Positions 1,659 through 23,895 of a DNA stretch of 27,202 bases are shown in pieces (position 1 is the stretch's first letter; every line of letters begins with the position of its first letter). Where the stretch lies: IMG/VR virus record IMGVR_UViG_2541047882_000005. One strand, written 5' to 3'. Under the pieces are notes generated by a model that worked only from the letters and a program-made list of their open reading frames with translations, did no database searches and had not been told where the DNA came from. The position numbers were made by a program, and so were the translations under genes. Origin of the DNA: a virus (lineage: Duplodnaviria > Heunggongvirae > Uroviricota > Caudoviricetes).

Positions 1659-3557
1659 TTAAGAATCAGCCTGACTCGGGATCAGTTTTTGCCAGATAAC
1701 TGAAACGTATTTTGCCTGGTAACGGGCGTCATCAAGTGCATTATGGCGCTCACCTTCGAATGGAATAGCCGTTCTGGCATCGAAGTCTATGGCTTTCCCC
1801 AGCTCAACGATTGTGCGTACATCGCGATCGTTGTAGTAACGCCACGGGCAGGGGATCCCCTGCCGTTCGTATGAACGGCGCAAAATCGTGTTGTCGAAGT
1901 TGGCTCCATTTCCCCAAACCTGAACAAAAAATTCACCGGAGTTTTCGTCGATAAATTCTCGCAATTGTAACAGTGCATCATCTAACGGGATTTCATCGGT
2001 CATAATGGCAGATTGCGCTTCGCGTGATTGCTTAAGCCACCATTTAATGGTGTCCCGATCAATGACTCCGCCAGCAGTTTCCAGATCGATAGTCTTACTA
2101 AATTCCGGTCCCATATCTCCGGTTTGCGGATCGAAAAATATTGCACCTATTGAGATGATCGGGGCATCAGGATTTTTTCCCATGGTTTCAAGGTCGATCA
2201 TTAGATGGTCACACGTCCTGCTGGTGGATGTGATTTCGTGATGACCGTTCACCTTAATTGGGTGATCTGCCGTCTCGCCAGTTTCATTATCGCTATTGTG
2301 ATGCTGATTGCCGCCAGTGTTCTCCTTGTGTGGATGTTCAGCGCCTTCCATTTCCTCCGGATCATCTTCCTGAACTTCAACCTGATACTCTTCATCGAAT
2401 GTTTCTTGGTATGTTGCGTCGCCCATCACCGCGCCACAATCAGGGCAGTTGCCGCCGCCGGTCTGACCGCAGGCGGTGCAGACTTTTTCCACTTCCTGTT
2501 GCGCTACTGGTTCAGGCTGTTTCGTTTCTGGCTCGTTTTGTAACGCATTTGGACTGTTTTGTTCCGCTTTTTGGTAGTTCCGTTCCGATTCATGCTGGTT
2601 CTGGTTCACAGAATCGCGGGTCTGGAGCCCCTTAACCCATTTCGGATCATTCGGGTCACTAATCCCTTCAACAAATTCACCACGTGATGCAGCAAGCAAC
2701 TTATCGGCGTCAGGCTGGCTGATATTGGCTGCCTGCATAATTTTGTTTACTTCGTCAGCGGTAACTTTTATCGGCTCTGGTTGTTCTGAATCTTCAGCGG
2801 TATCTACATTTTGCGGTAAGCCCGTGTATGTGCCATTTTTTCGGGCAAAATATTCTTCTTTTGTGATTTCAGTGGCGCCAGCAGCCAGTGCCTTATCCAG
2901 ACCAGAGAGTTTGTTTGCGCGACCGTATTTTTCTCCGTCCTTATCTGCGAAGAGGAAATAGAACGGCCCCTCACGCTCTACAGATGGTTCAGCTTCCGGC
3001 GCGGTTTCATTTTTTGGGATATCAGATACCTCAGTTTCCACTGCATCAGTTTGTGTTTCTGATGACTGGAGAACATCAACAGTGCCCAGGTCTGTTTCTT
3101 CATTCTCAAACACGCCCTTTGTCGTCAGGTATTCGCAGATATATTTGTTCAGTGCTACGGGATCTTTGTGAATGTCGATCGGACGCTCACGGACAAGGCC
3201 AAAAATAGTTTGGCGGTCGTAGCGAAGGGCATCAGGCTGTTTGCGCATTGGTGCCGAGATACGCTTCCAGTCTTCGCGGTCGTTGTCGATAACTTCTTTT
3301 TTTGCCCAGCGATGGATGCTGCCGTCAATGTTTCCGGCATCCACATCACTAGGCCAGAGAGCGTAGGCCAGTTCGTCATCCAGTGTTTTCCATGTCTGCT
3401 TGTATTCGCGATGAATGGCAGCAATGACCGGGCTGATTTTTCCTGTTGAATTTTCAGTGTACTGTTGATTGGCTCTGGCGCGGGCGAGATCAACAACAGA
3501 CGTGTATTTTCCGGTTTCCTTGCGTTCACCTTCGCGACGTTTTTTCCAGATGCGCAT
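1659..3557 (-). CDS. RecE-like exonuclease with C-terminal DnaQ-type DEDDh 3'-5' exonuclease domain
   Basis: Central region matches the RecE (exonuclease VIII) acidic/zinc-finger segment as I recall it (..LLAASRGEFVEGISDPNDPKWVKG.., ..CTACGQTGGGNCPDCGAVMGDATYQETFDEE..); C-terminus shows DEDDh motifs (MIDLETMG, GNGANFD, HNALDDARYQ). The listed ORF extends to 3692 but that start is TTG; first in-frame ATG is 3557. Confidence 0.8.
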   Translation of the reverse strand: MRIWKKRREGERKETGKYTSVVDLARARANQQYTENSTGKISPVIAAIHREYKQTWKTLDDELAYALWPSDVDAGNIDGSIHRWAKKEVIDNDREDWKRISAPMRKQPDALRYDRQTIFGLVRERPIDIHKDPVALNKYICEYLTTKGVFENEETDLGTVDVLQSSETQTDAVETEVSDIPKNETAPEAEPSVEREGPFYFLFADKDGEKYGRANKLSGLDKALAAGATEITKEEYFARKNGTYTGLPQNVDTAEDSEQPEPIKVTADEVNKIMQAANISQPDADKLLAASRGEFVEGISDPNDPKWVKGLQTRDSVNQNQHESERNYQKAEQNSPNALQNEPETKQPEPVAQQEVEKVCTACGQTGGGNCPDCGAVMGDATYQETFDEEYQVEVQEDDPEEMEGAEHPHKENTGGNQHHNSDNETGETADHPIKVNGHHEITSTSRTCDHLMIDLETMGKNPDAPIISIGAIFFDPQTGDMGPEFSKTIDLETAGGVIDRDTIKWWLKQSREAQSAIMTDEIPLDDALLQLREFIDENSGEFFVQVWGNGANFDNTILRRSYERQGIPCPWRYYNDRDVRTIVELGKAIDFDARTAIPFEGERHNALDDARYQAKYVSVIWQKLIPSQADS

Positions 3558-3615
3558 CTCTGCCTGAATTTCGGGCCATTTAGCACCAGGAATACATTTA
3601 TGCTTAACCCACCCA

Positions 3616-3882
3616 ATGGCGTGCAACTTAAGCTCCGGATACGGGTTATTCCCCTCTGAACAGGCGCGTAAGGACTGGCAAAACGCCCGCAAAAAACTCT
3701 CGAGGGCAAAGGTGAAGAAACCTGCTGTGGTTGATCCGGACCTTATCTGGTCATCACCTGACGGAGAAATACGTCGCTACGACAGTCGCCTAAACATAAT
3801 CTGTCGCGAGTGCCGGAAGAGTGAAGTTATGCAGCGCATACTGGCTTTCTATCAGGGTAATTTTCAGGACGTGGCGCAGTGA
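3616..3882 (+). CDS. Hypothetical small protein (alternative GTG start at 3715 with GAGGG SD-like sequence)
   Basis: 88-aa ORF divergent from the exonuclease; ends 4 bp into the next ORF (GTGA overlap). No recognisable motifs beyond CxxC..CxxC-like spacing (CRECRK). Confidence 0.3.
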   Translation: MACNLSSGYGLFPSEQARKDWQNARKKLSRAKVKKPAVVDPDLIWSSPDGEIRRYDSRLNIICRECRKSEVMQRILAFYQGNFQDVAQ

Positions 3883-4235
3883 GTGCACCGGCAACCATTC
3901 TTGATATGTGCTGTGGCAGCCGCATGTTCTGGTTCGATAAGTCTGACGAACGGGCGATATTCAGCGATATCAGAAAAGAAGGATACACATTACGCAATGG
4001 GAGACGCTTGATTATCAGCCCTGACATTATCGCAGATTTTCGTGCATTATCATTTGCAGACGCATCTTTTTCGATGGTTGTATTAGACCCTCCGCATCTT
4101 GAGAGTGTTGGTGATAACGCCTGGATGGGAAAGAAATATGGACGGCTGAATAAAGATGCCTGGCGTGATGATTCGCGACAGAGATTTAAAGAAGCCTTTC
4201 GGGTGTTGAGGCCGCACGGCGTTCTGATTTTTTAA
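3879..4235 (+). pseudogene. SAM-dependent methyltransferase, probably C-terminally truncated
   Basis: Motif I-like LDMCCGS and motif IV-like VVLDPPH in gamma-class order; ORF stops after ..LRPHGVLIF, shorter than any complete class I methyltransferase fold. Confidence 0.45.
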
Positions 4236-4497: not shown

Positions 4498-5133
4498 ATG
4501 CGAAAGTTCAAAATTATTATTGAAACGGGAATAGCTGGTGGAGATTTTGAGGATGTATTCGAAGTGGACGATGACGCAACACCTGAGGAAATTCATGACG
4601 GAGCATAAGAAATTTTCTTTAACTACTGCAATTACTCATACCACGAAATAAAAGACGATGAGGAAGAACAAAGTGGCTGATTTTTGTTCAGCTAAATATA
4701 ACATCAGTTTTGAAGAGCGGGATGAACTATTAATGGACTATGGTGAGTTACGCGGTGGAAGTGCTGCTGATGTCGAATCCTAGCGTGATGACTATGAAGC
4801 GGGAAAAACTCCGGTCGAAGCATATTGTGATGAGTGGGGCGATGAATGAGCGAGATTAATTATCAGGAAGGGCATGAAACGGCGGGGCAAGCAAAACCAG
4901 TGGCATGGCGATATCGCTACGTGAAAAAAGGCGTTACGGACTTTCAGGGGAAGTAGTGGTCTGGTGACTGGAAATATGTACCGAAAAAAGAGGATTGTAA
5001 CGACAGGCCGAACTATCAAATTCAGGCCTTATTCACTGCCTCACCAGTCCCAGTTACATCAGAAGAACTGGTTAAAGCTGTGCACTTTTATGAACAACTA
5101 AAACGCGAAAATCCACCAACATCCGGCAACTAG
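4498..5133 (+). pseudogene. Run of short, frame-interrupted ORFs (34, 39+21, 35, about 60 codons), probable decayed prophage genes
   Basis: Consecutive short reading frames separated by single stops or frame changes (e.g. ..AADVES-TAG-RDDYEAGKTPVEAYCDEWGDE; ..PVAWRYRYVKKGVTDFQGK-stop-VVWSGDWKYVPKKEDC..). Not in the supplied ORF track because each piece is under 60 aa. Confidence 0.25.
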
Positions 5134-5387
5134 ATTAATGGATTAACTATGTCGGTTAAACGACCAGCCAACTGAAAAAGCGGAAACCTGATTACAGGTT
5201 GCCAGATAAGGCAATGAGCTACCTGGCGCGGAACGGACTGATAAGTATGGGGAATGTTTTACGATGAACCTTTAGACTAAAGAGTTTGTAACGCTATGTA
5301 AGTGATTTTTTCTGGTTTAGATATTTATATGTCCGGCCAAATTGAGGTGTGTTTAAATGTAATTGCACATTGATTGTAGGAGGAATA

Positions 5388-5567
5388 ATGAAAAACGCAT
5401 TGCAGTTTTTGTTTGTTGCGTTCTGGTTGTTCGCATCATGTATGCCCATCATCTTCACAGCAAGGTATATGGAAAAAGTTGATGTTTTGATATTAATATT
5501 TGGATATATAAATGCCCTTTTTTTAGGGGTGTTCATGGCGGTCATGTGCATTGAATACTGGCGGTAA
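5388..5567 (+). CDS. Small two-helix membrane protein (59 aa), function unknown
   Basis: ATG at 5388 preceded by AGGAGG 5 nt upstream; two hydrophobic segments (ALQFLFVAFWLFASCMPIIF and VLILIFGYINALFLGVFMAVMCI). Confidence 0.4.
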   Translation: MKNALQFLFVAFWLFASCMPIIFTARYMEKVDVLILIFGYINALFLGVFMAVMCIEYWR

Positions 5568-5901
5568 ATACAGCGAACTCCATTGGTTTAGTTGGATATT
5601 TACTGTGCTGGACAAAAACGGTTTGCGGGGAAATCTTAGTTAAGTAGAATGACTGCGGGTGCTTGAGGCTATCTGCCTCGGGCATGGACACCAACGGCAG
5701 ATAGAGAAAAGCCCCAGTTAACATTACGCGTCCTGCAAGACGCTTAACATTAATCTGAGGCCAATTTCATGCTAGACACATGTAGGTTAGCCTCTTACGT
5801 GCCGAAAGGCACGGAGAAGCAGGCTATTGTTAACACCAAGCTGTAATGTCCCCTTTGAACCATTCTAAAATGTCCCCAGACAATTCTCTGGGGGATTTTT
5901 C

Positions 5902-7215
5902 ATGATCAAAGAGACTGTTACGATGAGTCATAAGGAACTCCACCGACTTCAGACTATTCAGGAACAAGCTGCGGCACGCATTGGCATTTCTATTCGGCAG
6001 GTTAAACGTCTGGTGCAACGGTATAGAAATGAAGGGCCTTCTGGTCTGGTTTCCCACCGACGTGGAAAGCGTCCTAATAATTCCTTTTCTACTGAATTCA
6101 GAGCAACAGTAATTTCACTCCTCAAAGGCCGTTACGCTGATTTTGGACCTACGTTTGCGTGCGAAAAATTGCGCGAGATACACGGTTTATCTTTATCCGT
6201 TGAAACTCTCAGAAAGTGGATGATAGAAGAGGGGTTATGGCGTGAACGCCGTCGTAAAATTGCCCGTATATATCAACGCCGCATGCGACGACCATCTTAC
6301 GGTGAACTGATCCAGATTGATGGCTCACCTCATGACTGGTTTGAAAATCGAGGCCCCAGATGTACACTGATCGTTTTCATTGATGATGCCACCAGTGCGT
6401 TGATGGCGTTGCGTTTTGTGCCTGCTGAAACAACCCGGGCTTACATGGAAACCCTCCGGGGTTACCTTAATGATCATGGCGTACCGCTCGCTCTCTACTC
6501 TGATAGACACAGTATATTCAGGGTAAATAACCCAGAGCGGGAAGGTGAGCTGACCCAGTTCACTCGTGCGATAAAGACACTGGGCATCGAGCCAATCCAT
6601 GCCAACAGCCCGCAGGCAAAAGGGCGGGTAGAGCGCGCCAATCAGACACTACAGGACAGGCTGGTCAAAGAAATGCGGCTTCAGAATATCAGTGATATTG
6701 AAACAGCAAATGCATGGTTGCCGACCTTTATTGAAGCCTATAACAACCGGTTCGCTACGTCGCCTCGTACTACTGATAATGCTCATCTTGATGTGCACCA
6801 TTCTGAAGAGGAACTGGGTTATATCTTCAGCCTACAGGCGAAGCGCGTTCTGTCTAAAAATCTCACTTTCCAGTACAAAAGCAGTGCGTTTCAGGTACGC
6901 AGTGAGGGCCGGGGATATCGACTTAGGCATTCGGTTGTTACTGTATGCGAGAACTTTGACGGTGAAATTAACGTTCTGTATGACGGGAAAGCGCTGGGCT
7001 GGGAAAAGTATGTTGATGGCCCGGAGCCTATACCACTGGATGATGAAAAGAGTGTCCATGAACGAGTGGATAATGCCCGTATTGATTTACGCTCAAAATA
7101 CTATGTTAAACCTAAAGCTGACCATCCCTGGCTTACGCGCCGAACGCAAAGTCATCAGCAAGTTAAGCCCCCGAAGTTACCTAAAAAGAAGCCTGATCCC
7201 GATAAAAAAGATTGA
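5902..7215 (+). CDS. DDE transposase with N-terminal HTH and integrase-core (rve) domain, IS481/ISNCY-like
   Basis: 437 aa; HTH-like GISIRQVKRLVQRY; catalytic-core motifs IQIDGSPHDW, FIDDATS, and SPQAKGRVERANQTLQ (the D,D-35-E region); GGGGA SD upstream of ATG. Confidence 0.85.
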   Translation: MIKETVTMSHKELHRLQTIQEQAAARIGISIRQVKRLVQRYRNEGPSGLVSHRRGKRPNNSFSTEFRATVISLLKGRYADFGPTFACEKLREIHGLSLSVETLRKWMIEEGLWRERRRKIARIYQRRMRRPSYGELIQIDGSPHDWFENRGPRCTLIVFIDDATSALMALRFVPAETTRAYMETLRGYLNDHGVPLALYSDRHSIFRVNNPEREGELTQFTRAIKTLGIEPIHANSPQAKGRVERANQTLQDRLVKEMRLQNISDIETANAWLPTFIEAYNNRFATSPRTTDNAHLDVHHSEEELGYIFSLQAKRVLSKNLTFQYKSSAFQVRSEGRGYRLRHSVVTVCENFDGEINVLYDGKALGWEKYVDGPEPIPLDDEKSVHERVDNARIDLRSKYYVKPKADHPWLTRRTQSHQQVKPPKLPKKKPDPDKKD

Positions 7216-7269
7216 AACCAAGATCGATTCGGTTGAGTGCATATCCATTCATAGGGTAGATTCTTAAGT

Positions 7270-7335
7270 CGCGTTTCTGGTGTTCATTTTCGGGTGGTTT
7301 GTTACTTGTTTTACCGGGGATATGCCAGAAACGCG
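7270..7335. repeat. 11-bp perfect inverted repeat CGCGTTTCTGG / CCAGAAACGCG with 44-nt spacer
   Basis: Read directly from sequence just downstream of the transposase stop. Confidence 0.5.
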
Positions 7336-7612
7336 CTGAGTCAGTCTGGGCGGTGCGCGTAATGAGGCGTTATGGTAAATAGCCTATGCTAATGTCCGCT
7401 AAGAGCAAGAAGCGGAAGTTGGCAGTTTTGTGGACTGTCCCCACAAAAGTGACTACAGAAATAGTTGCAATTCATAATTGATCATGGGTTGTCAGTTAAA
7501 CTCGTGGCGATTTAAATAGACTAATTGGGAGTGCGTCCATTACTTATATCTTGTAATGTTAACTATCAGAAATGATACAAAGATAATATGTCTTTAAAGA
7601 AAAGGCTGATGG

Positions 7613-7637
7613 CGAAAAGTGGCCCGATGAGGGCCAC
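7613..7637 (-). terminator. Rho-independent terminator downstream of flxA
   Basis: On the minus strand GTGGCCC-TCATC-GGGCCAC hairpin followed by TTTTCG. Confidence 0.4.
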
Positions 7638-7651
7638 AATACGGCTGTCAC

Positions 7652-7984
7652 TTAGACGTAAATATCAATGGTGCCAGCGGTATTTGTATCGTCTTTTTTC
7701 TCTTCTTTTTTATCAGGCTGAACTGTCGCGTCTTCATTCTTTTTCTCTGCCTGCTGCCTTAACAACTGCTCCAGTTGAGCCCAGAGGCTTTCAATTTGCT
7801 TCTGTACCAATGCAGCCATTTCTTTTTTCTGCTGTGTCGTCATCCCCTCTTCCGATGAGATTTTCCCAAGCTTTTCAGTCAGCACCTGAATTTGTCTTGT
7901 GATTTTGGCTATTTCTGATGTTCCTTCCGGGGCGGAGTTGTTTGAAATAACGGTTGAGGTATTTCCCTGAATTGTGACAGACAT
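7652..7984 (-). CDS. flxA: FlxA (FliA-regulated prophage protein)
   Basis: 110-aa ORF matching FlxA as I recall it (MSVTIQGNTSTVISNN..TIDIYV); AAGGAG SD upstream. Confidence 0.85.
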   Translation of the reverse strand: MSVTIQGNTSTVISNNSAPEGTSEIAKITRQIQVLTEKLGKISSEEGMTTQQKKEMAALVQKQIESLWAQLEQLLRQQAEKKNEDATVQPDKKEEKKDDTNTAGTIDIYV

Positions 7985-8006
7985 AGATTTCTCCTTTTAA
8001 AAAAGC

Positions 8007-8033
8007 ACTATCGGCATGCACAAAAAAATCTTT
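8007..8033 (-). promoter_or_regulatory. Sigma-28 (FliA) type promoter for flxA
   Basis: Minus strand reads TAAAGATT-N11-GCCGATAG versus consensus TAAAGTTT-N11-GCCGATAA, about 20 bp upstream of the flxA start. Confidence 0.5.
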
Positions 8034-8186
8034 AATCGTATTTCTTGTGTCATTAATTGTTTGATGTTCAGATTGTTTTCCTCGCGGGCTGGCGCGCCTC
8101 AGAAAGTAAAGCTTGTTGACAGGGGTAAACGTTCGGCAATAATTTTCTGCCGCATGCGGGTGTTGCATAAAACGTGTTACGTTCCT

Positions 8187-8492
8187 TTATCGACAGGTCA
8201 GGTCACCGCTCACCCGCCGACGAGAAAGCAACACTGACATGCTAAAGCAAAAAATAGATGAATAAGTTGAGTTGTGCATATGTAGCCTGACCGTCACAAA
8301 GTATATGGTGTCTGTACCAGTAAGATGATGGCCGGACTCTTTAAAAACGAGCTGACCTGCACAATACAGGATGGACTTAGCAATGGCTGCTCCTGGCACA
8401 AAGCGGACAGTGATCACCGTTCTTACGACTACTTTCTGACTTCCTTCGTGACTTGCCCTAAGCATGTTGTAGTGCGATACTTGTAATGACAT
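8187..8492 (-). CDS. Hypothetical protein (YdfV-like position between flxA and relB)
   Basis: 101-aa ORF divergent from relB; no motif support, positional only. Confidence 0.3.
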   Translation of the reverse strand: MSLQVSHYNMLRASHEGSQKVVVRTVITVRFVPGAAIAKSILYCAGQLVFKESGHHLTGTDTIYFVTVRLHMHNSTYSSIFCFSMSVLLSRRRVSGDLTCR

Positions 8493-8506
8493 TTGTAATT
8501 ACAAGA
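8481..8506 (+). promoter_or_regulatory. relBE operator/promoter region (palindromic RelB-RelE binding site)
   Basis: TTGTAATGACATTTGTAATTACAA contains the palindrome TTGTAATTACAA about 10 bp upstream of relB. Confidence 0.55.
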
Positions 8507-8516
8507 GGTGTAAGAC

Positions 8517-8756
8517 ATGGGTAGCATTAACCTGCGTATTGACGATGAACTTAAAGCGCGTTCTTACGCCGCGCTTGAAAAAATGGGTGTAACTCCTTCT
8601 GAAGCGCTTCGTCTCATGCTCGAGTATATCGCTGACAATGAACGCTTGCCGTTCAAACAGACACTCCTGAGTGATGAAGATGCTGAACTTGTGGAGATAG
8701 TGAAAGAACGGCTTCGTAATCCTAAGCCAGTACGTGTGACGCTGGATGAACTCTGA
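8517..8756 (+). CDS. relB: RelB antitoxin (ribbon-helix-helix)
   Basis: 79 aa, MGSINLRIDDELKARSYAALEKMGVTPSEALRLMLEYIADNERLPF..; overlaps relE start. Confidence 0.9.
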   Translation: MGSINLRIDDELKARSYAALEKMGVTPSEALRLMLEYIADNERLPFKQTLLSDEDAELVEIVKERLRNPKPVRVTLDEL

Positions 8757-9043
8757 TGGCGTATTTTCTGGATTTTGACGAGCGGGCACTAAAGGAATGG
8801 CGAAAGCTGGGCTCGACGGTACGTGAACAGTTGAAAAAGAAGCTGGTTGAAGTACTTGAGTCACCCCGGATTGAAGCAAACAAGCTCCGTGGTATGCCTG
8901 ATTGTTACAAGATTAAGCTCCGGTCTTCAGGCTATCGCCTTGTATACCAGGTTATAGACGAGAAAGTTGTCGTTTTCGTGATTTCTGTTGGGAAAAGAGA
9001 ACGCTCGGAAGTATATAGCGAGGCGGTCAAACGCATTCTCTGA
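8756..9043 (+). CDS. relE: RelE mRNA-interferase toxin
   Basis: 95 aa, MAYFLDFDERALKEWRKLGSTVREQLKKKL..; start overlaps relB stop. Confidence 0.9.
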   Translation: MAYFLDFDERALKEWRKLGSTVREQLKKKLVEVLESPRIEANKLRGMPDCYKIKLRSSGYRLVYQVIDEKVVVFVISVGKRERSEVYSEAVKRIL

Positions 9044-9114
9044 ACCAAAGCATGACATCTCTGTTTCGCACCGAAGGTGACACTTCTGCTTTGCGTTGAC
9101 AGGAGAAGCAGGCT

Positions 9115-9270
9115 ATGAAGCAGCAAAAGGCGATGTTAATCGCCCTGATCGTCATCTGTTTAACCGTCATAGTGACGGCACTGGTAACGAGGAAAGACCT
9201 CTGCGAGGTACGAATCCGAACCGGCCAGACGGAGGTCGCTGTCTTCACAGCTTACGAACCTGAGGAGTAA
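9115..9270 (+). CDS. hokD: Hok-family small membrane toxin HokD (RelF)
   Basis: 51-aa ORF found by hand (below ORF-track cutoff): MKQQKAMLIALIVICLTVIVTALVTRKDLCEVRIRTGQTEVAVFTAYEPEE; AGGAGAAG SD. Confidence 0.85.
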   Translation: MKQQKAMLIALIVICLTVIVTALVTRKDLCEVRIRTGQTEVAVFTAYEPEE

Positions 9271-10084: not shown

Positions 10085-11134
10085 GTGCGGGTATTACTTA
10101 GACCTGTTCTGGTGCCTGAGCTTGGGCTGGTGGTCCTTAAGCCGGGCCGTGAATCCATACAGATATTTCATAATCCTCGAGTGCTGGTGGAACCGGAACC
10201 AAAAAGCATGCGTAATCTGCCATCCGGAGTCGTTCCTGCCGTTCGCCAGCCGCTGGCGGAAGACAAAACATTGCTGCCGTTTTTTAGTAACGAACGGGTG
10301 ATTCGTGCTGCTGGCGGCGTTGGCGCATTGTCCGACTGGCTATTACGTCATGTTACATCCTGCCAGTGGCCTAATGGCGATTACCATCACACTGAAACAG
10401 TCATTCACCGTTATGGTACCGGCGCAATGGTGTTGTGCTGGCACTGCGACAACCAACTGCGTGACCAGACATCGGAATCACTGGAGCTGCTTGCTCAACA
10501 AAATCTGACAGCATGGGTGATTGACGTCATCCGTCACGCAATAAGCGGTACGCAGGAGCGGGAATTATCTTTGGCTGAATTATCCTGGTGGGCGGTCTGC
10601 AATCAGGTGGTGGATGCACTACCTGAGGCTGTATCGCGTCGTTCGCTGGGATTACCAGCGGAAAAAATCTGCTCGGTGTACCGCGAAAGCGACATCGTAC
10701 CGGGAGAGCAGACCGCCACCAGCATATTGAAACAACGCACAAAAAATCTTGCACCGTTGCCTTACGCCCACCAGCAACAAAAATCACCACAGGAAAAGAC
10801 GGTGGTAAGCATCACCGTTGATCCAGAGTCTCCGGAATCTTTCATGAAGCTGCCTAAACGTCGCCGCTGGGTTAAGGAGAAATACACACGTTGGGTTAAG
10901 ACACAGCCGTGTGCTTGCTGCGGTATGCCAGCCGACGATCCGCATCATCTGATTGGTCACGGGCAGGGCGGAATGGGAACAAAAGCACATGATCTCTTTG
11001 TGTTGCCTTTGTGCAGAAAGCATCACAACGAGCTGCATACGGATACAGTGGCATTTGAAGATAAGTATGGCTCCCAACTGGAGCTGATATTTCGTTTTAT
11101 CGATCGCGCGCTGGCAATTGGCGTACTGGCGTAA
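10085..11134 (+). CDS. ydfU: DUF968-like prophage protein with C-terminal Cys/His (HNH-like) motif
   Basis: 349 aa; C-terminus ..CACCGMPADDPHHLIGHGQGGMGTKAHDLFVLPLCRKHHNELH..; sits directly upstream of Q as in lambdoid nin regions. Confidence 0.7.
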   Translation: MRVLLRPVLVPELGLVVLKPGRESIQIFHNPRVLVEPEPKSMRNLPSGVVPAVRQPLAEDKTLLPFFSNERVIRAAGGVGALSDWLLRHVTSCQWPNGDYHHTETVIHRYGTGAMVLCWHCDNQLRDQTSESLELLAQQNLTAWVIDVIRHAISGTQERELSLAELSWWAVCNQVVDALPEAVSRRSLGLPAEKICSVYRESDIVPGEQTATSILKQRTKNLAPLPYAHQQQKSPQEKTVVSITVDPESPESFMKLPKRRRWVKEKYTRWVKTQPCACCGMPADDPHHLIGHGQGGMGTKAHDLFVLPLCRKHHNELHTDTVAFEDKYGSQLELIFRFIDRALAIGVLA

Positions 11135-11147
11135 GTGGAGAACGAGC

Positions 11148-11900
11148 ATGAACCTTGAAGCCTTACCAAAATATTACTCCCCAAAATCTCCAAAATTGAG
11201 CGATGACGCTCCAGCGACAGGCACCGGTTGTTTAACAATTACGGATGTAATGGCAGCGCAGGGGATGGTGCAGTCGAAAGCACCACTTGGGTTGGCCTTA
11301 TTTCTGGCAAAAGTTGGTGTTCAGGACCCTCAGTTTGCGATTGAAGGCCTGCTAAATTACGCGATGGCACTGGATAACCCGACATTGAACAAATTGAGTG
11401 AAGAAATCCGGTTACAGATTATTCCTTACCTCGTGAGTTTTGCCTTTGCTGATTACTCCAGGTCTGCGGCAAGTAAGGCTCGCTGTGAGCATTGTTCAGG
11501 TACGGGATTTTATAATGTATTGCGCGAAGTGGTGAAACACTACAGACGCGGGGAATCTGTAATCAAGGAAGAATGGGTGAAGGAACTATGTCAGCATTGC
11601 CATGGTAAGGGCGAAGCCAGCACAGCGTGCAGAGGGTGTAAGGGTAAAGGGATTGTTCTGGATGAAAAAAGAACCCGGTTTCATGGCGTACCGGTATATA
11701 AGATTTGTGGGCGTTGTAATGGAAACCGGTTTAGTCGTTTACCGACCACGCTGGCACGACGTCATGTCCAGAAGCTGGTACCAGACCTGACCGATTATCA
11801 GTGGTATAAGGGGTATGCGGACGTCATTGGTAAACTGGTAACAAAGTGCTGGCAGGAAGAAGCATACGCGGAAGCGCAATTGAGGAAGGTGACGAGATAA
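11148..11900 (+). CDS. quuQ: Late-gene antiterminator Q
   Basis: 250 aa from ATG 11148 (GGAG SD); Cys-rich zinc-binding region (CEHCSGTG..CQHCHGKG..CRGCKGKG), position immediately upstream of the lysis cassette. Confidence 0.8.
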   Translation: MNLEALPKYYSPKSPKLSDDAPATGTGCLTITDVMAAQGMVQSKAPLGLALFLAKVGVQDPQFAIEGLLNYAMALDNPTLNKLSEEIRLQIIPYLVSFAFADYSRSAASKARCEHCSGTGFYNVLREVVKHYRRGESVIKEEWVKELCQHCHGKGEASTACRGCKGKGIVLDEKRTRFHGVPVYKICGRCNGNRFSRLPTTLARRHVQKLVPDLTDYQWYKGYADVIGKLVTKCWQEEAYAEAQLRKVTR

Positions 11901-12534: not shown

Positions 12535-12834
12535 AAAAATTCCTTAATACTGATAACTTGGCGCACTATACACACGTTCCTGAAGAAAGCTATAGTTTTT
12601 TGATGGGGTTGAAGATGGCTGGATGTCTAAAATAAACATTGCTTCATATGTTCAACTATGCGTTAATGATTGCGTCGGTTTGAAGAACAGACGATATACG
12701 AAGTAGTTTACTAAAGCAGTTCTCATTTCAGGTGTTATTCACTTATTCCTTCTTTGAGTCTCTCCAATTAAGTACGAAGTCGTTTCTGTTATGCAAACCA
12801 TTTATGCCGAAAGGCTCAAGTTAAGGAATGTAGA

Positions 12835-13050
12835 ATGTCAAATAAAATGACTGGTTTAGTAAAATGGTTTAACGCTGATAAAGGTTTCGGCTTTATTTCT
12901 CCTGTTGATGGTAGTAAAGATGTGTTTGTGCATTTTTCTGCGATTCAGAATGATAATTATCGAACCTTATTTGAAGGTCAAAAGGTTACCTTCTCTATAG
13001 AGAGTGGTGCTAAAGGTCCTGCAGCAGCAAATGTCATCATTACTGATTAA
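12835..13050 (+). CDS. cspB: Cold-shock protein CspB
   Basis: 71 aa, [38 protein letters not shown]..; long 5' UTR typical of cold-shock genes. Confidence 0.9.
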
Positions 13051-13331
13051 AATTCATCGCTCGTCTGTATACGATAACGAAGAAGGCTGATGCCTGAGTA
13101 GAGATACGGACAGAGTAGTGAATATTGGATCTCTTTAATAAAAAGTAAGGAGGTCCAATACATGAAACAATGGCTAGCATATTTGGCAAAATCTTAATCA
13201 GGAAAAGTATGCTAACCATTGTGGTGAAGTGCAGGTTTGCTGCATGAATAGTTTTACAGCAGAAGCTAACTGCTGGCATGGCAAAACAAAGTGCGTAAGT
13301 GGATGACTCCCACAAAAAGCACCACAATCTC

Positions 13332-13584: not shown

Positions 13585-13803
13585 AGGCTTTTCCTGTATA
13601 AATGGCCGTATACAGTACACTAAATATGAAAACATTTCTCGTATTATTATTTTATATATGACTTTCTTTCAAAATAATTACCCACATTTTTAATGTGTAT
13701 GTTTTTTTAGCGCCGTTGAGAACAACGTGTGCTGTCAAAACTACCCCGTAGACTCCGATCTTTTCAAACATATTGCACCATCCGTGTACATCGGGGTGAG
13801 GAT

Positions 13804-14019
13804 ATGAAATCAATGGATAAGTTAACAACAGGTGTTGCCTATGGCACATCGGCGGGTAATGCTGGTTTCTGGGCATTGCAGTTACTCGATAAAGTAACTC
13901 CGTCACAGTGGGCTGCAATCGGTGTGCTGGGTAGCCTGGTTTTTGGCCTGCTGACGTATCTGACAAATCTTTATTTCAAGATTAAAGAAGACAGGCGTAA
14001 GGCTGCGAGAGGAGAGTAA
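13804..14019 (+). CDS. essQ: Class II holin (phage 21 S-type pinholin-like) with dual-start motif
   Basis: 71 aa from ATG 13804 (GGGGTGAGG SD); begins MKSMDK (two Met codons), two hydrophobic helices. Confidence 0.85.
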
Positions 14020-14023
14020 TCCA

Positions 14024-14331
14024 ATGACTCAAGACTATGAACTGGTTGTGAAAGGAGTCCGTAATTTTGAGAATAAAGTTACGGTAACTGTAGCCTTACA
14101 GGACAAAGAACGCTTTGACGGTGAAATTTTTGACCTGGATGTCGCCATGGACCGTGTTGAAGGAGCTGCGCTGGAGTTTTATGAGGCAGCAGCCAGAAGG
14201 AGCGTCCGGCAAGTCTTCCTGGAAGTAGCAGAAAAATTGTCAGAAAAAGTTGAGTCTTATCTGCAGCATCAGTACTCCTTTAAGATTGAAAATCCTGCCA
14301 ATAAGCACGAGCGTCCTCATCATAAATATCT

Positions 14332-14335
<4 letters not shown>
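14024..14335 (+). CDS. ydfR: Hypothetical protein between holin and endolysin
   Basis: 103-aa ORF; its stop overlaps the endolysin start (ATGA). Confidence 0.6.
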
Positions 14336-15359
<1,024 letters not shown>

Positions 15360-15721
15360 GGTAATATTAAATCGGAACATTTACATCGCGGAATGTAAAA
15401 TTTAAATAAAAAGGACTCTTCCATGAGCCAAAATTCCTGAAATCTTAAGGGTAAGATAAAAGGTCTTAATCAGAATGACACGTTTTATTAATAAATAAAG
15501 CTATTCTTTCATTGCTGTGTTTTTCTTTACAAAAGTAATCCTTGCTATGGGTGGTTAATCATGCGTTAATGGTGTTCTGGTTTGTTACAAATTTATCTGA
15601 AGCAGTCATTGTTATAATTTTATTATTTGTACCTCTTGAGATTTCCTTGTTGGTTTTTCTCTCTGATATTTTTTTTCGGACCATTCTGCCCAAGGGCTAA
15701 TTTCTTCAAAAGGTAATAATT

Positions 15722-15934
15722 ATGTCTAACAAAATGACTGGTTTAGTGAAATGGTTTAACCCTGAAAAAGGTTTTGGTTTCATCACGCCGAAAGATGGCA
15801 GCAAAGATGTGTTTGTCCATTTCTCAGCAATTCAGAGCAACGATTTCAAAACATTAACTGAGAATCAGGAAGTTGAATTTGGTATTGAGAACGGACCTAA
15901 AGGTCCTGCCGCTGTTCATGTAGTGGCGCTTTGA
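15722..15934 (+). CDS. cspI: Cold-shock protein CspI
   Basis: 70 aa, [45 protein letters not shown].. Confidence 0.9.
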
Positions 15935-16022
15935 GGTAGACAATATTACAAACCATATTCACTTTAGATGCCCGTGTTGTCATGGTTCCCAGTATAGAAC
16001 ATCATCTTTTGATGTTTCTGAC

Positions 16023-23045: not shown

Positions 23046-23320
23046 CATTTGTTTCAGGTGGTTCCAGTGGTGCTCCGGGAAGTGGATCACCTGATTATTC
23101 TAAATACAGTGTTAACACTTCTTCTGCAGGCGCTCATACGCACTCTGTATCGGGTACTGCTGCAAGCGCAGGTGCACACGCACATACTGTCGGTATTGGT
23201 GCTCATACGCACTCCGTTGCGATTGGTTCACATGGACATACCATCACCGTTAACGCTGCTGGTAACGCGGAAAACACCGTCAAAAACATCGCATTTAACT
23301 ATATTGTGAGGCTTGCGTAA
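23012..23320 (+). pseudogene. C-terminal fragment of side tail fibre (Stf)
   Basis: His-rich repeats ([27 protein letters not shown]) and terminal ..[15 protein letters not shown], the conserved tail-fibre C-terminus; fused to J' at about 23019. Confidence 0.75.
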
Positions 23321-23895
23321 TGGCATTCAGAATGAGTGAACAACCACGGACCATAAAAATTTATAATCTGCTGGCCGGAACTAATGAATTTATTGGTGAA
23401 GGTGACGCATATATTCCGCCTCATACAGGTCTGCCAGCAAACAGTACCGATATTGCACCGCCAGATATTCCGGCAGGCTTCGTGGCTGTTTTCAACAGTG
23501 ATGAGGCATCGTGGCATCTCGTTGAAGATCATCGGGGTAAAACGGTTTATGACGTGGCTTCCGGCGACGCGTTATTTATTTCTGAACTCGGTCCGTTACC
23601 GGAAAATGTTACCTGGTTATCGCCGGGAGGGGAATATCAGAAGTGGAACGGCACAGCCTGGGTGAAGGATACGGAAGCAGAAAAACTGTTCCGGATCCGG
23701 GAGGCGGAAGAAACAAAAAACAGCCTGATGCAGATAGCCAGTGAGCATATAGCGCCGCTTCAGGATGCTGTGGATCTGGAGATCGCAACGGAGGAAGAAA
23801 CCTTGTTGCTGGAAGCCTGGAAAAAGTATCGGGTGTTGCTGAACCGTGTTGATACATCAACTGCACCGGATATTGAATGGCCAGCACTGCCGTAG
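23320..23895 (+). CDS. tfa: Tail fibre assembly protein Tfa
   Basis: 191 aa, [54 protein letters not shown].., matches lambda Tfa; start overlaps stf stop. Confidence 0.85.

Follow-up and report, generated by a model that had tools for sequence, protein, structure and literature searches.

Here we describe a candidate small gene in a 27,202-nucleotide stretch of viral DNA (IMG/VR record IMGVR_UViG_2541047882_000005; Caudoviricetes), called the window below, which constitutes a Qin-like cryptic lambdoid prophage of Escherichia coli. An open reading frame (ORF) of 59 codons on its plus strand, at positions 5388 to 5567 and named ORF59 here, is probably a real and conserved gene for a small membrane protein of the Qin/Rac-type prophages of E. 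coli and Shigella, and not a holin gene. The specific role of its product, which would have to be judged by analogy with known small phage proteins, is far less certain than the reality of the gene.

ORF59 ends with a TAA codon at 5565 to 5567 and encodes MKNALQFLFVAFWLFASCMPIIFTARYMEKVDVLILIFGYINALFLGVFMAVMCIEYWR, a 59-residue protein of an unnamed family with two predicted transmembrane (TM) helices. The DNA around its start (5375 to 5390) reads TGTAGGAGGAATAATG and contains the Shine-Dalgarno (SD) sequence AGGAGG at 5378 to 5383, separated by the spacer AATA from the ATG at 5388 to 5390. A first-pass annotation, made from the letters of this DNA only, had placed this SD sequence at optimal spacing. 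The SD sequence is present and usable, but the measured spacer of 4 nucleotides is one of the shorter functional spacings and not the optimal one. Among 84 related copies, 16 carried the variant AGGGGG. The predicted fold of positions 5330 to 5430 had an energy of -20.1 kcal/mol, compared to -20.2 kcal/mol for shuffled sequences (z = 0.03), and the SD sequence was open in the centroid structure. Some annotators extend the protein to a 72-residue form starting at an in-frame GTG (extension at 5349 to 5387, plus strand). We rejected this start because the frame is shut in a diverged lineage by a TAA five codons before the ATG (positions 811 to 813 of copy L087); since the 13-codon extension is closed there, the ATG at 5388 is the conserved start.

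The predicted protein is strongly hydrophobic, with a grand average of hydropathy (GRAVY) of 1.27, and its hydropathy profile shows hydrophobic segments at about residues 3 to 25 and 33 to 55. AlphaFold2, run on a small family alignment, placed helices at residues 2 to 24 and 31 to 58 with moderate confidence (mean predicted local distance difference test score, 71). The first predicted TM helix (codons 3 to 25; 5394 to 5462, plus strand) includes W13, S17, C18, P20, I21, I22, and T24, and the second (codons 33 to 55; 5484 to 5552, plus strand) includes L36, F38, G39, N42, A43, L44, G47, and I55, all of them invariant across the two lineages described below; a conserved end, I-E-x-W-R, closes the protein. 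Hydropathy and AlphaFold2 thus agree with the two hydrophobic helices of the first-pass annotation, whereas the short basic loop that it placed between them did not hold: the loop R26-Y-M-E-K-V-D32 has two positive and two negative charges and is net neutral. That of the diverged relative, SEYLTEAS, is acidic, so that a basic loop is not a feature of the family.

The window by itself points only weakly to a real gene. The sequence AGGAGG occurs seven times on its plus strand, and the strand is T-rich, such that random frames are already hydrophobic: composition-matched open frames had an average GRAVY of 0.58. Compared to these frames, ORF59 was unusual in its GRAVY (p = 0.013), its two hydrophobic segments (p = 0.035), and its codon periodicity (p = 0.04), that is, only at p values between 0.013 and 0.04. 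These figures would suit an ORF that arose by chance, in which case a T-rich strand upstream of hok would simply have stayed open for 59 to 72 codons and its DNA would have been conserved by recent spread of the module or by the needs of hok regulation. It is because of the comparison with a second lineage that ORF59 goes beyond chance.

When 1.84 billion representative proteins were scanned with phmmer, one diverged relative was returned, P0037, which has 59 residues and aligns with the ORF59 product without gaps from end to end at 41% identity (E = 1e-8). Its common form, P0042, was found in 1045 of the 5426 complete E. coli genomes, among them those of CFT073 and of Nissle-type strains. The two ORFs share 59% DNA identity without any indel, and identity is highest at second codon positions (70%), followed by first (58%) and third (48%) positions. 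Nonsynonymous divergence (dN) was 0.47 and synonymous divergence (dS) about 2, giving a dN/dS of about 0.24. The alignment has no gap column within the ORF, while 58 gap columns fall in the 220 nucleotides upstream and 34 in the 110 nucleotides downstream, and every other frame, antisense included, has stops in the diverged lineage. When 74 random substitutions were simulated, start, stop, and open frame survived together in only 0.24% of the trials (P = 0.0024), and among these survivors an amino acid identity at least as high as that observed had a p value of 0.01 and a hydropathy correlation at least as high as the observed 0.71 a p value of 0.002. Besides the helix residues named above, M1, L5, L8, E56, W58, and R59 are invariant between the lineages. 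Frame, length, and amino acid properties have thus been kept while the flanks decayed, in what is one deep comparison only. The existence of a gapless lineage of the same length at 41% identity, together with the dN/dS of about 0.24, argues for a real coding gene, and the alignment gives good evidence that ORF59 has been under long-term purifying selection.

An origin by chance accounts poorly for these data, since the diverged lineage keeps start, stop, and length between flanks full of gaps. The DNA would not have been held in place by hok either: 2930 genomes matched a query covering positions 5200 to 5700 and only 1567 matched ORF59, which leaves many hok loci without the ORF and indicates that hok regulation does not need it. 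We therefore regard a chance ORF as improbable.

Several observations nevertheless weigh against a functional gene. All 10 polymorphic sites found within the two lineages (6 in the window lineage, at 5388 to 5567, and 4 in the other, at 829 to 1008 of L087) were nonsynonymous and none was synonymous, which would be unlikely under a dN/dS of 0.24 (p of about 0.001) and is compatible with neutrality (p of about 0.1). The variants were A16V, V31I, I37M, Y40H, L44I, and Y57C in the window lineage and V6M, S11N, A31V, and R33I in the other, and several of them (M37, H40, and C57) match the state of the other lineage. This pattern fits neutrality or relaxed constraint in decaying prophages. In addition, about 10 truncated or fused variants of ORF59 occurred in rare contigs, RefSeq and the Prokaryotic Genome Annotation Pipeline (PGAP) annotate nothing at ORF59 in any of the genomes listed, and no paper in the searchable literature mentions its peptide sequences. 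A promoter scan of positions 5000 to 6000 on both strands found no promoter-like site for ORF59, although hok/sok in the same interval likewise scored none. Only two lineages, both from E. coli and Shigella, are available, so that the comparison depends on a single deep split, and the functional reading is one of analogy only. The ORF was intact in all of the 131 full-length copies fetched, 108 of 108 in the window lineage and 23 of 23 in the other. Within-lineage dN/dS, considered as a coding test, was discarded as uninformative, all variable sites being nonsynonymous. Variable sites were fewer in the ORF (6 in 180 nucleotides) than in the flanks (19 in 150 and 8 in 90).

Of the 5426 complete E. 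coli genomes, 1567 had the segment from 5341 to 5567, comprising ORF59 and its leader, all copies having at least 95% DNA identity. ATCC 8739 is one strain with this lineage. Conservation in related prophages, on which the first-pass annotation had made its reading depend, was found in Qin/Rac-type prophages as well as in the diverged lineage. Word-indexed protein searches with ORF59, its paralog, and a two-lineage profile retrieved only the two E. coli/Shigella lineages, and no third lineage emerged from DNA scans of viral, genome, and metagenome collections or from tblastn against phages and plasmids. The protein and its paralog have often been deposited in GenBank, UniRef, and IMG, where the entries are called only "hypothetical" or "membrane protein" (e.g., A0A1Q9L2W4_ECOLX and A0A2S5RMW9_ECOLX) and have been given neither a name nor a family or function, and lack a curated RefSeq model. 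One candidate for a distant homolog, a 53% match in CP178302.1 ("E. coli ECMA0423"; L086), was rejected as a frameshift-ridden copy of the same DNA. At positions 2900 to 3300 of L086, small indels and substitutions are densely spread over the module and affect the SD sequence as well, which suggests an assembly rich in errors and not a diverged homolog.

In K-12 MG1655, ORF59 is deleted: the DNA of this strain matches the window only up to position 3642 and again from 7031. At NC_000913.3 1647174 to 1647636 (L141, 4175 to 4637), ydfX and ydfW flank the deletion junction, from which ORF59 and the sok/mok fragment have been removed; ydfW lies in the part just beyond the transposase ORF of a transposon-like element described below. 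The diverged copy is part of the remains of a prophage at the Rac attachment site, ttcA, with the order integrase fragment, DUF977 fragment, intact ORF, hok 3' fragment, sitD fragments, and uspF. As ORF59 is followed by hok in both lineages, this synteny is old. In B2-type strains, the group of CFT073 and Nissle, represented by E. coli CP042246.1 (L088, 6990 to 8300; likewise L089 to L095), the ttcA remnant is tiny and the ORF59 paralog is its sole whole piece.

Three phage records carry an antisense ORF of 85 codons (5294 to 5551, minus strand) under the name "hypothetical protein" or, in two of them, "hornerin"; it lies, for instance, at 10959 to 11210 of PV340562.1 and at 23105 to 23356 of ON470612.1. 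It was not retained as a true gene because two stop codons break its frame in the diverged lineage, and it is probably a mis-call that shadows ORF59.

Translation of ORF59 would start at the ATG at 5388 by means of the AGGAGG sequence, and its product would be a 59-residue helical hairpin of the inner membrane. Both lineages have a basic N terminus (MK in the window, MRK in the relative), a neutral-to-acidic loop, and a C-terminal arginine, a charge pattern which suggests that both ends are cytoplasmic and the short loop periplasmic. Many of the invariant residues within the helices are small or polar, and these (S17-C18, P20, T24, G39, N42, and G47), together with the end I-E-x-W-R, suggest helix packing or oligomerization in the membrane. 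ORF59 is oriented like the replication, nin, and Q genes, and the scans detected neither a promoter nor a terminator belonging to it, so that it would most likely be a delayed-early product, made when the rightward operon is on, from a transcript running into the adjacent hok/sok locus. The only terminator-like hairpin found by the terminator scan is on the minus strand (5200 to 5185) and is not kept in the paralog. As to its role, ORF59 might encode a membrane-acting accessory protein that modulates the host or an infection, in the manner of small phage exclusion or membrane-perturbing proteins; the product may inhibit growth when overproduced and would act outside the lysis machinery. By analogy, we tentatively rank such a membrane-acting accessory protein above the more specific readings of a toxin or an exclusion protein.

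A small membrane toxin would be a type I-like or GhoT-like hairpin that arrests growth or depolarizes the membrane, is silent in the lysogen, and perhaps forms a double-toxin module with hok. The size of the product, its two-helix hydrophobic architecture, and its strong SD sequence would suit such a protein, as would the hok adjacency conserved in both lineages and the toxin-rich prophage region, with hok and relBE in the window and dicB and ydfD in relatives. Like the Hok/Gef toxins, the ORF59 product is a membrane peptide from lambdoid prophages that is short and hydrophobic, but Hok has one helix, a periplasmic cysteine-containing tail, and mok/Sok control, whereas ORF59 has two helices, no antisense RNA that we could detect, and an unoccluded start. 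Translation starts occluded by folding have been described for type I toxin mRNAs, while the start region of ORF59 folded no better than shuffled sequences. No known antisense RNA family of Rfam covers positions 5341 to 5567; the sok match begins only at 5657 and belongs to hok. A novel small RNA may nevertheless be encoded there. GhoT, a type V toxin of 57 residues with two helices, resembles the ORF59 product in size and hydrophobic architecture but differs in its genomic setting, and we found neither a GhoT/OrtT match in Pfam or NCBIfam nor an adjacent ghoS-like gene, the neighbors being a pseudogene and hok/sok. More generally, ORF59 matched no family of Pfam (Hok/Gef, PF01848, included), NCBIfam, PHROG, or, for both lineages, PADLOC at E values up to 10. 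No partner gene was found, the promoter scan detected no site on either strand, and the gene has stayed stably intact in all the copies fetched, so that by these comparisons a toxin is possible but unlikely. A distinctly unlikely role, again considered by analogy, is that of a superinfection-exclusion or other phage defense membrane protein which would block incoming phage DNA. T4 Imm and HK97 gp15 are small membrane proteins by which a phage keeps out superinfecting phages, and ORF59 is like them in encoding a small inner-membrane protein among phage accessory genes; it also adjoins hok/sok and stays intact in heavily decayed remnants, where only genes that benefit the host would be expected to persist. 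No sequence similarity or significant structural similarity to the two proteins was found, however, and PADLOC gave no match. The lack of a detected promoter makes expression in the lysogen doubtful, which counts against exclusion, and the immunity and pR region is deleted in the window.

The first-pass annotation had also considered a holin-like or lysis-modulating protein. The class II P21 S-type holins (PF04971), to which EssQ of the same prophage belongs, are, like the predicted ORF59 product, small phage inner-membrane proteins with two TM helices and both ends probably cytoplasmic, and 1 of 56 structural neighbors was named a holin, although at a nonsignificant E value of 8.6. A Foldseek search of viral structures (BFVD) with the AlphaFold2 hairpin found only generic hairpins, all with E values above 1. 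ORF59 lies in the early region, upstream of Q (11118 to 11900), and outside the lysis cassette at 13729 to 15359 that provides holin, lysozyme, and Rz. A charged C-terminal domain is lacking, only the four residues E-Y-W-R following the second TM helix, there is no dual-start motif in the sequence, and the holin families of Pfam and PHROGs gave no match. A holin, antiholin, or lysis-timing modulator thus fails on position, C-terminal tail, dual start, and family membership and is highly improbable, so that the earlier interpretation stands as far as a genuine small membrane protein from a cryptic prophage is concerned but not in its holin-like part. Finally, ORF59 and hok/sok could be one functional module kept in two lineages, the hairpin acting with or against Hok in the membrane. 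It may, for example, modulate the formation of pores by Hok or confer immunity to it, or be a second effector whose transcript extends into the hok leader. We consider this quite improbable; if true, a toxin system regarded as purely RNA-controlled would gain a protein component. Among these possibilities, a real gene for a membrane-acting accessory protein is the reading we prefer.

The gene content of the window is Qin-like, in agreement with the cryptic lambdoid prophage of the first-pass annotation. It begins with an integrase gene (20 to 1315), a truncated recE-type exonuclease gene (1659 to 3692), and a DUF977 remnant with a methyltransferase gene (3616 to 4235); at 3616 to 3692, the truncated recE-type gene overlaps and abuts the DUF977 remnant, to which it is fused. 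Two decayed small genes, PGAP pseudogenes in the annotation of identical DNA, occupy positions 4498 to 5267. The nin-region gene directly upstream of ORF59 (4846 to 5267, plus strand) is frameshifted and has an internal stop, and its 3' end is conserved beside ORF59 in both lineages. ORF59 is followed by flxA, ydfV, relBE, hokD, rem, ydfU, and Q, and, past this antiterminator gene, by the lysis cassette, in which a P21-type holin gene (13729 to 14019) precedes DUF1327, lysozyme, and Rz. The ORF thus belongs to the early-right nin region, some 8 kb upstream of the lysis cassette, and is oriented like the replication genes, DUF977, methyltransferase, ydfU, and Q. The phages PhiR42_1 and vB_EcoS-640R1 have the order O, LygF/DUF977, small ORFs, ORF59, hok, ydfU, and Q, and the window has the same, as would be expected of a nin-region accessory gene. 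The dicB-dicF-dicA-dicC-ydaT-O immunity and replication segment, including the pR region, is deleted in the window at a junction common to 78 complete genomes, and with the immunity and pR region gone, expression of ORF59 here may be low or accidental.

A 13-nucleotide palindrome, CTTTAGaCTAAAG, lies at 5272 to 5284, directly past the stop codon of the decayed upstream gene. The aligned place in the diverged lineage (705 to 717 of L087) reads CTTCAGtCTGAAG, in which the symmetry is kept through a paired T>C and A>G change. From this single comparison, the palindrome may bind a protein or form a small hairpin. Elsewhere in the window, Rfam matches at 12674 to 13066, 15576 to 15961, and 23663 to 23861 correspond to two cspA-type thermoregulator leaders, of the cspB/cspF-type cold shock genes of Qin, and to an IS009 RNA element.

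The first-pass annotation had placed ORF59 next to an insertion sequence (IS) element, in a stretch with no other intact genes. An IS element is indeed nearby, but the true neighbor is a hok/sok locus, into which the element has inserted. As to other genes, the statement applies to protein genes, given the two pseudogenes, but not to the 5' half of hok/sok at 5657 to 5827 (plus strand). This orphaned half scored 104 bits with the Rfam model RF01794 (gathering score, 59); it comprises the promoter, the hok mRNA leader, the Sok region, and, at 5769, a mok-like ATG, and the break falls within the start codon of hok. Relatives that lack the IS, such as phage vB_EcoS-640R1, have an intact mok/hok directly after this segment, and their homology to the window ends exactly at 5827. 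The 3' half of this hok gene, now detached, is K-12's hokD (relF) and is found downstream of relBE at 9115 to 9270 (plus strand), the hok sequence resuming at 9117. Insertion in the hok start codon thus explains why hokD of K-12 follows relBE and is without sok/mok.

The two halves are separated by a transposon-like insertion of 3274 bp of the IS1202 family (ISEsa1-like; 5828 to 9101, plus strand), which carries a transposase ORF (5902 to 7215), ydfW, flxA, ydfV, and relBE. In PGAP annotation the transposase is called ISNCY or "IS1202-like ISEsa1 family," and RefSeq describes it as C-terminally truncated in near-identical copies elsewhere. The insertion has the ends TGT...ACA, its terminal inverted repeats match at 22 of 30 positions, and it is flanked by a perfect direct repeat of 15 bp, the target-site duplication GGAGAAGCAGGCTAT, at 5813 to 5827 on the left and at 9102 to 9116 on the right, the right copy extending into the hokD ATG by two bases. 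Empty insertion sites occur in many genomes. TGT/ACA ends, imperfect terminal repeats, and, in one subgroup, long duplications have been described for the IS1202 family, in which ISEsa1 itself is listed without a detectable duplication (PMC10132070). The integration of relBE and the resulting truncation of an ancestral hok/mok frame were noted earlier (PMC6379469), and we found no description of these transposon boundaries in searchable papers. The whole 3274-bp unit may have moved, or the cargo may have entered a resident IS. Sok RNA could still be made from the orphaned half and may base-pair with the mRNAs of other hok genes of the cell. We also considered ORF59 as cargo of the IS and rejected this, as the IS boundary at 5828 is 260 nucleotides past its stop codon and copies without the IS keep ORF59.

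Annotation systematically misses small membrane proteins, and ORF59 is a clear example: its two lineages are present in 1567 and 1045 of 5426 genomes, with a strong ribosome binding site and signs of long-term selection, and RefSeq makes no call among the genomes listed. The K-12 reference genome cannot reveal it because of the deletion in MG1655. ORF59 has had no name, its product is of a familiar kind, and the split hok/sok locus with its transposon is a useful by-product of the analysis. In practical terms, the finding is of modest significance unless a phenotype comes to light. Naming ORF59 provides a defined candidate for prophage-encoded membrane effectors, and its place upstream of hok/sok raises the question of whether the two are co-expressed.

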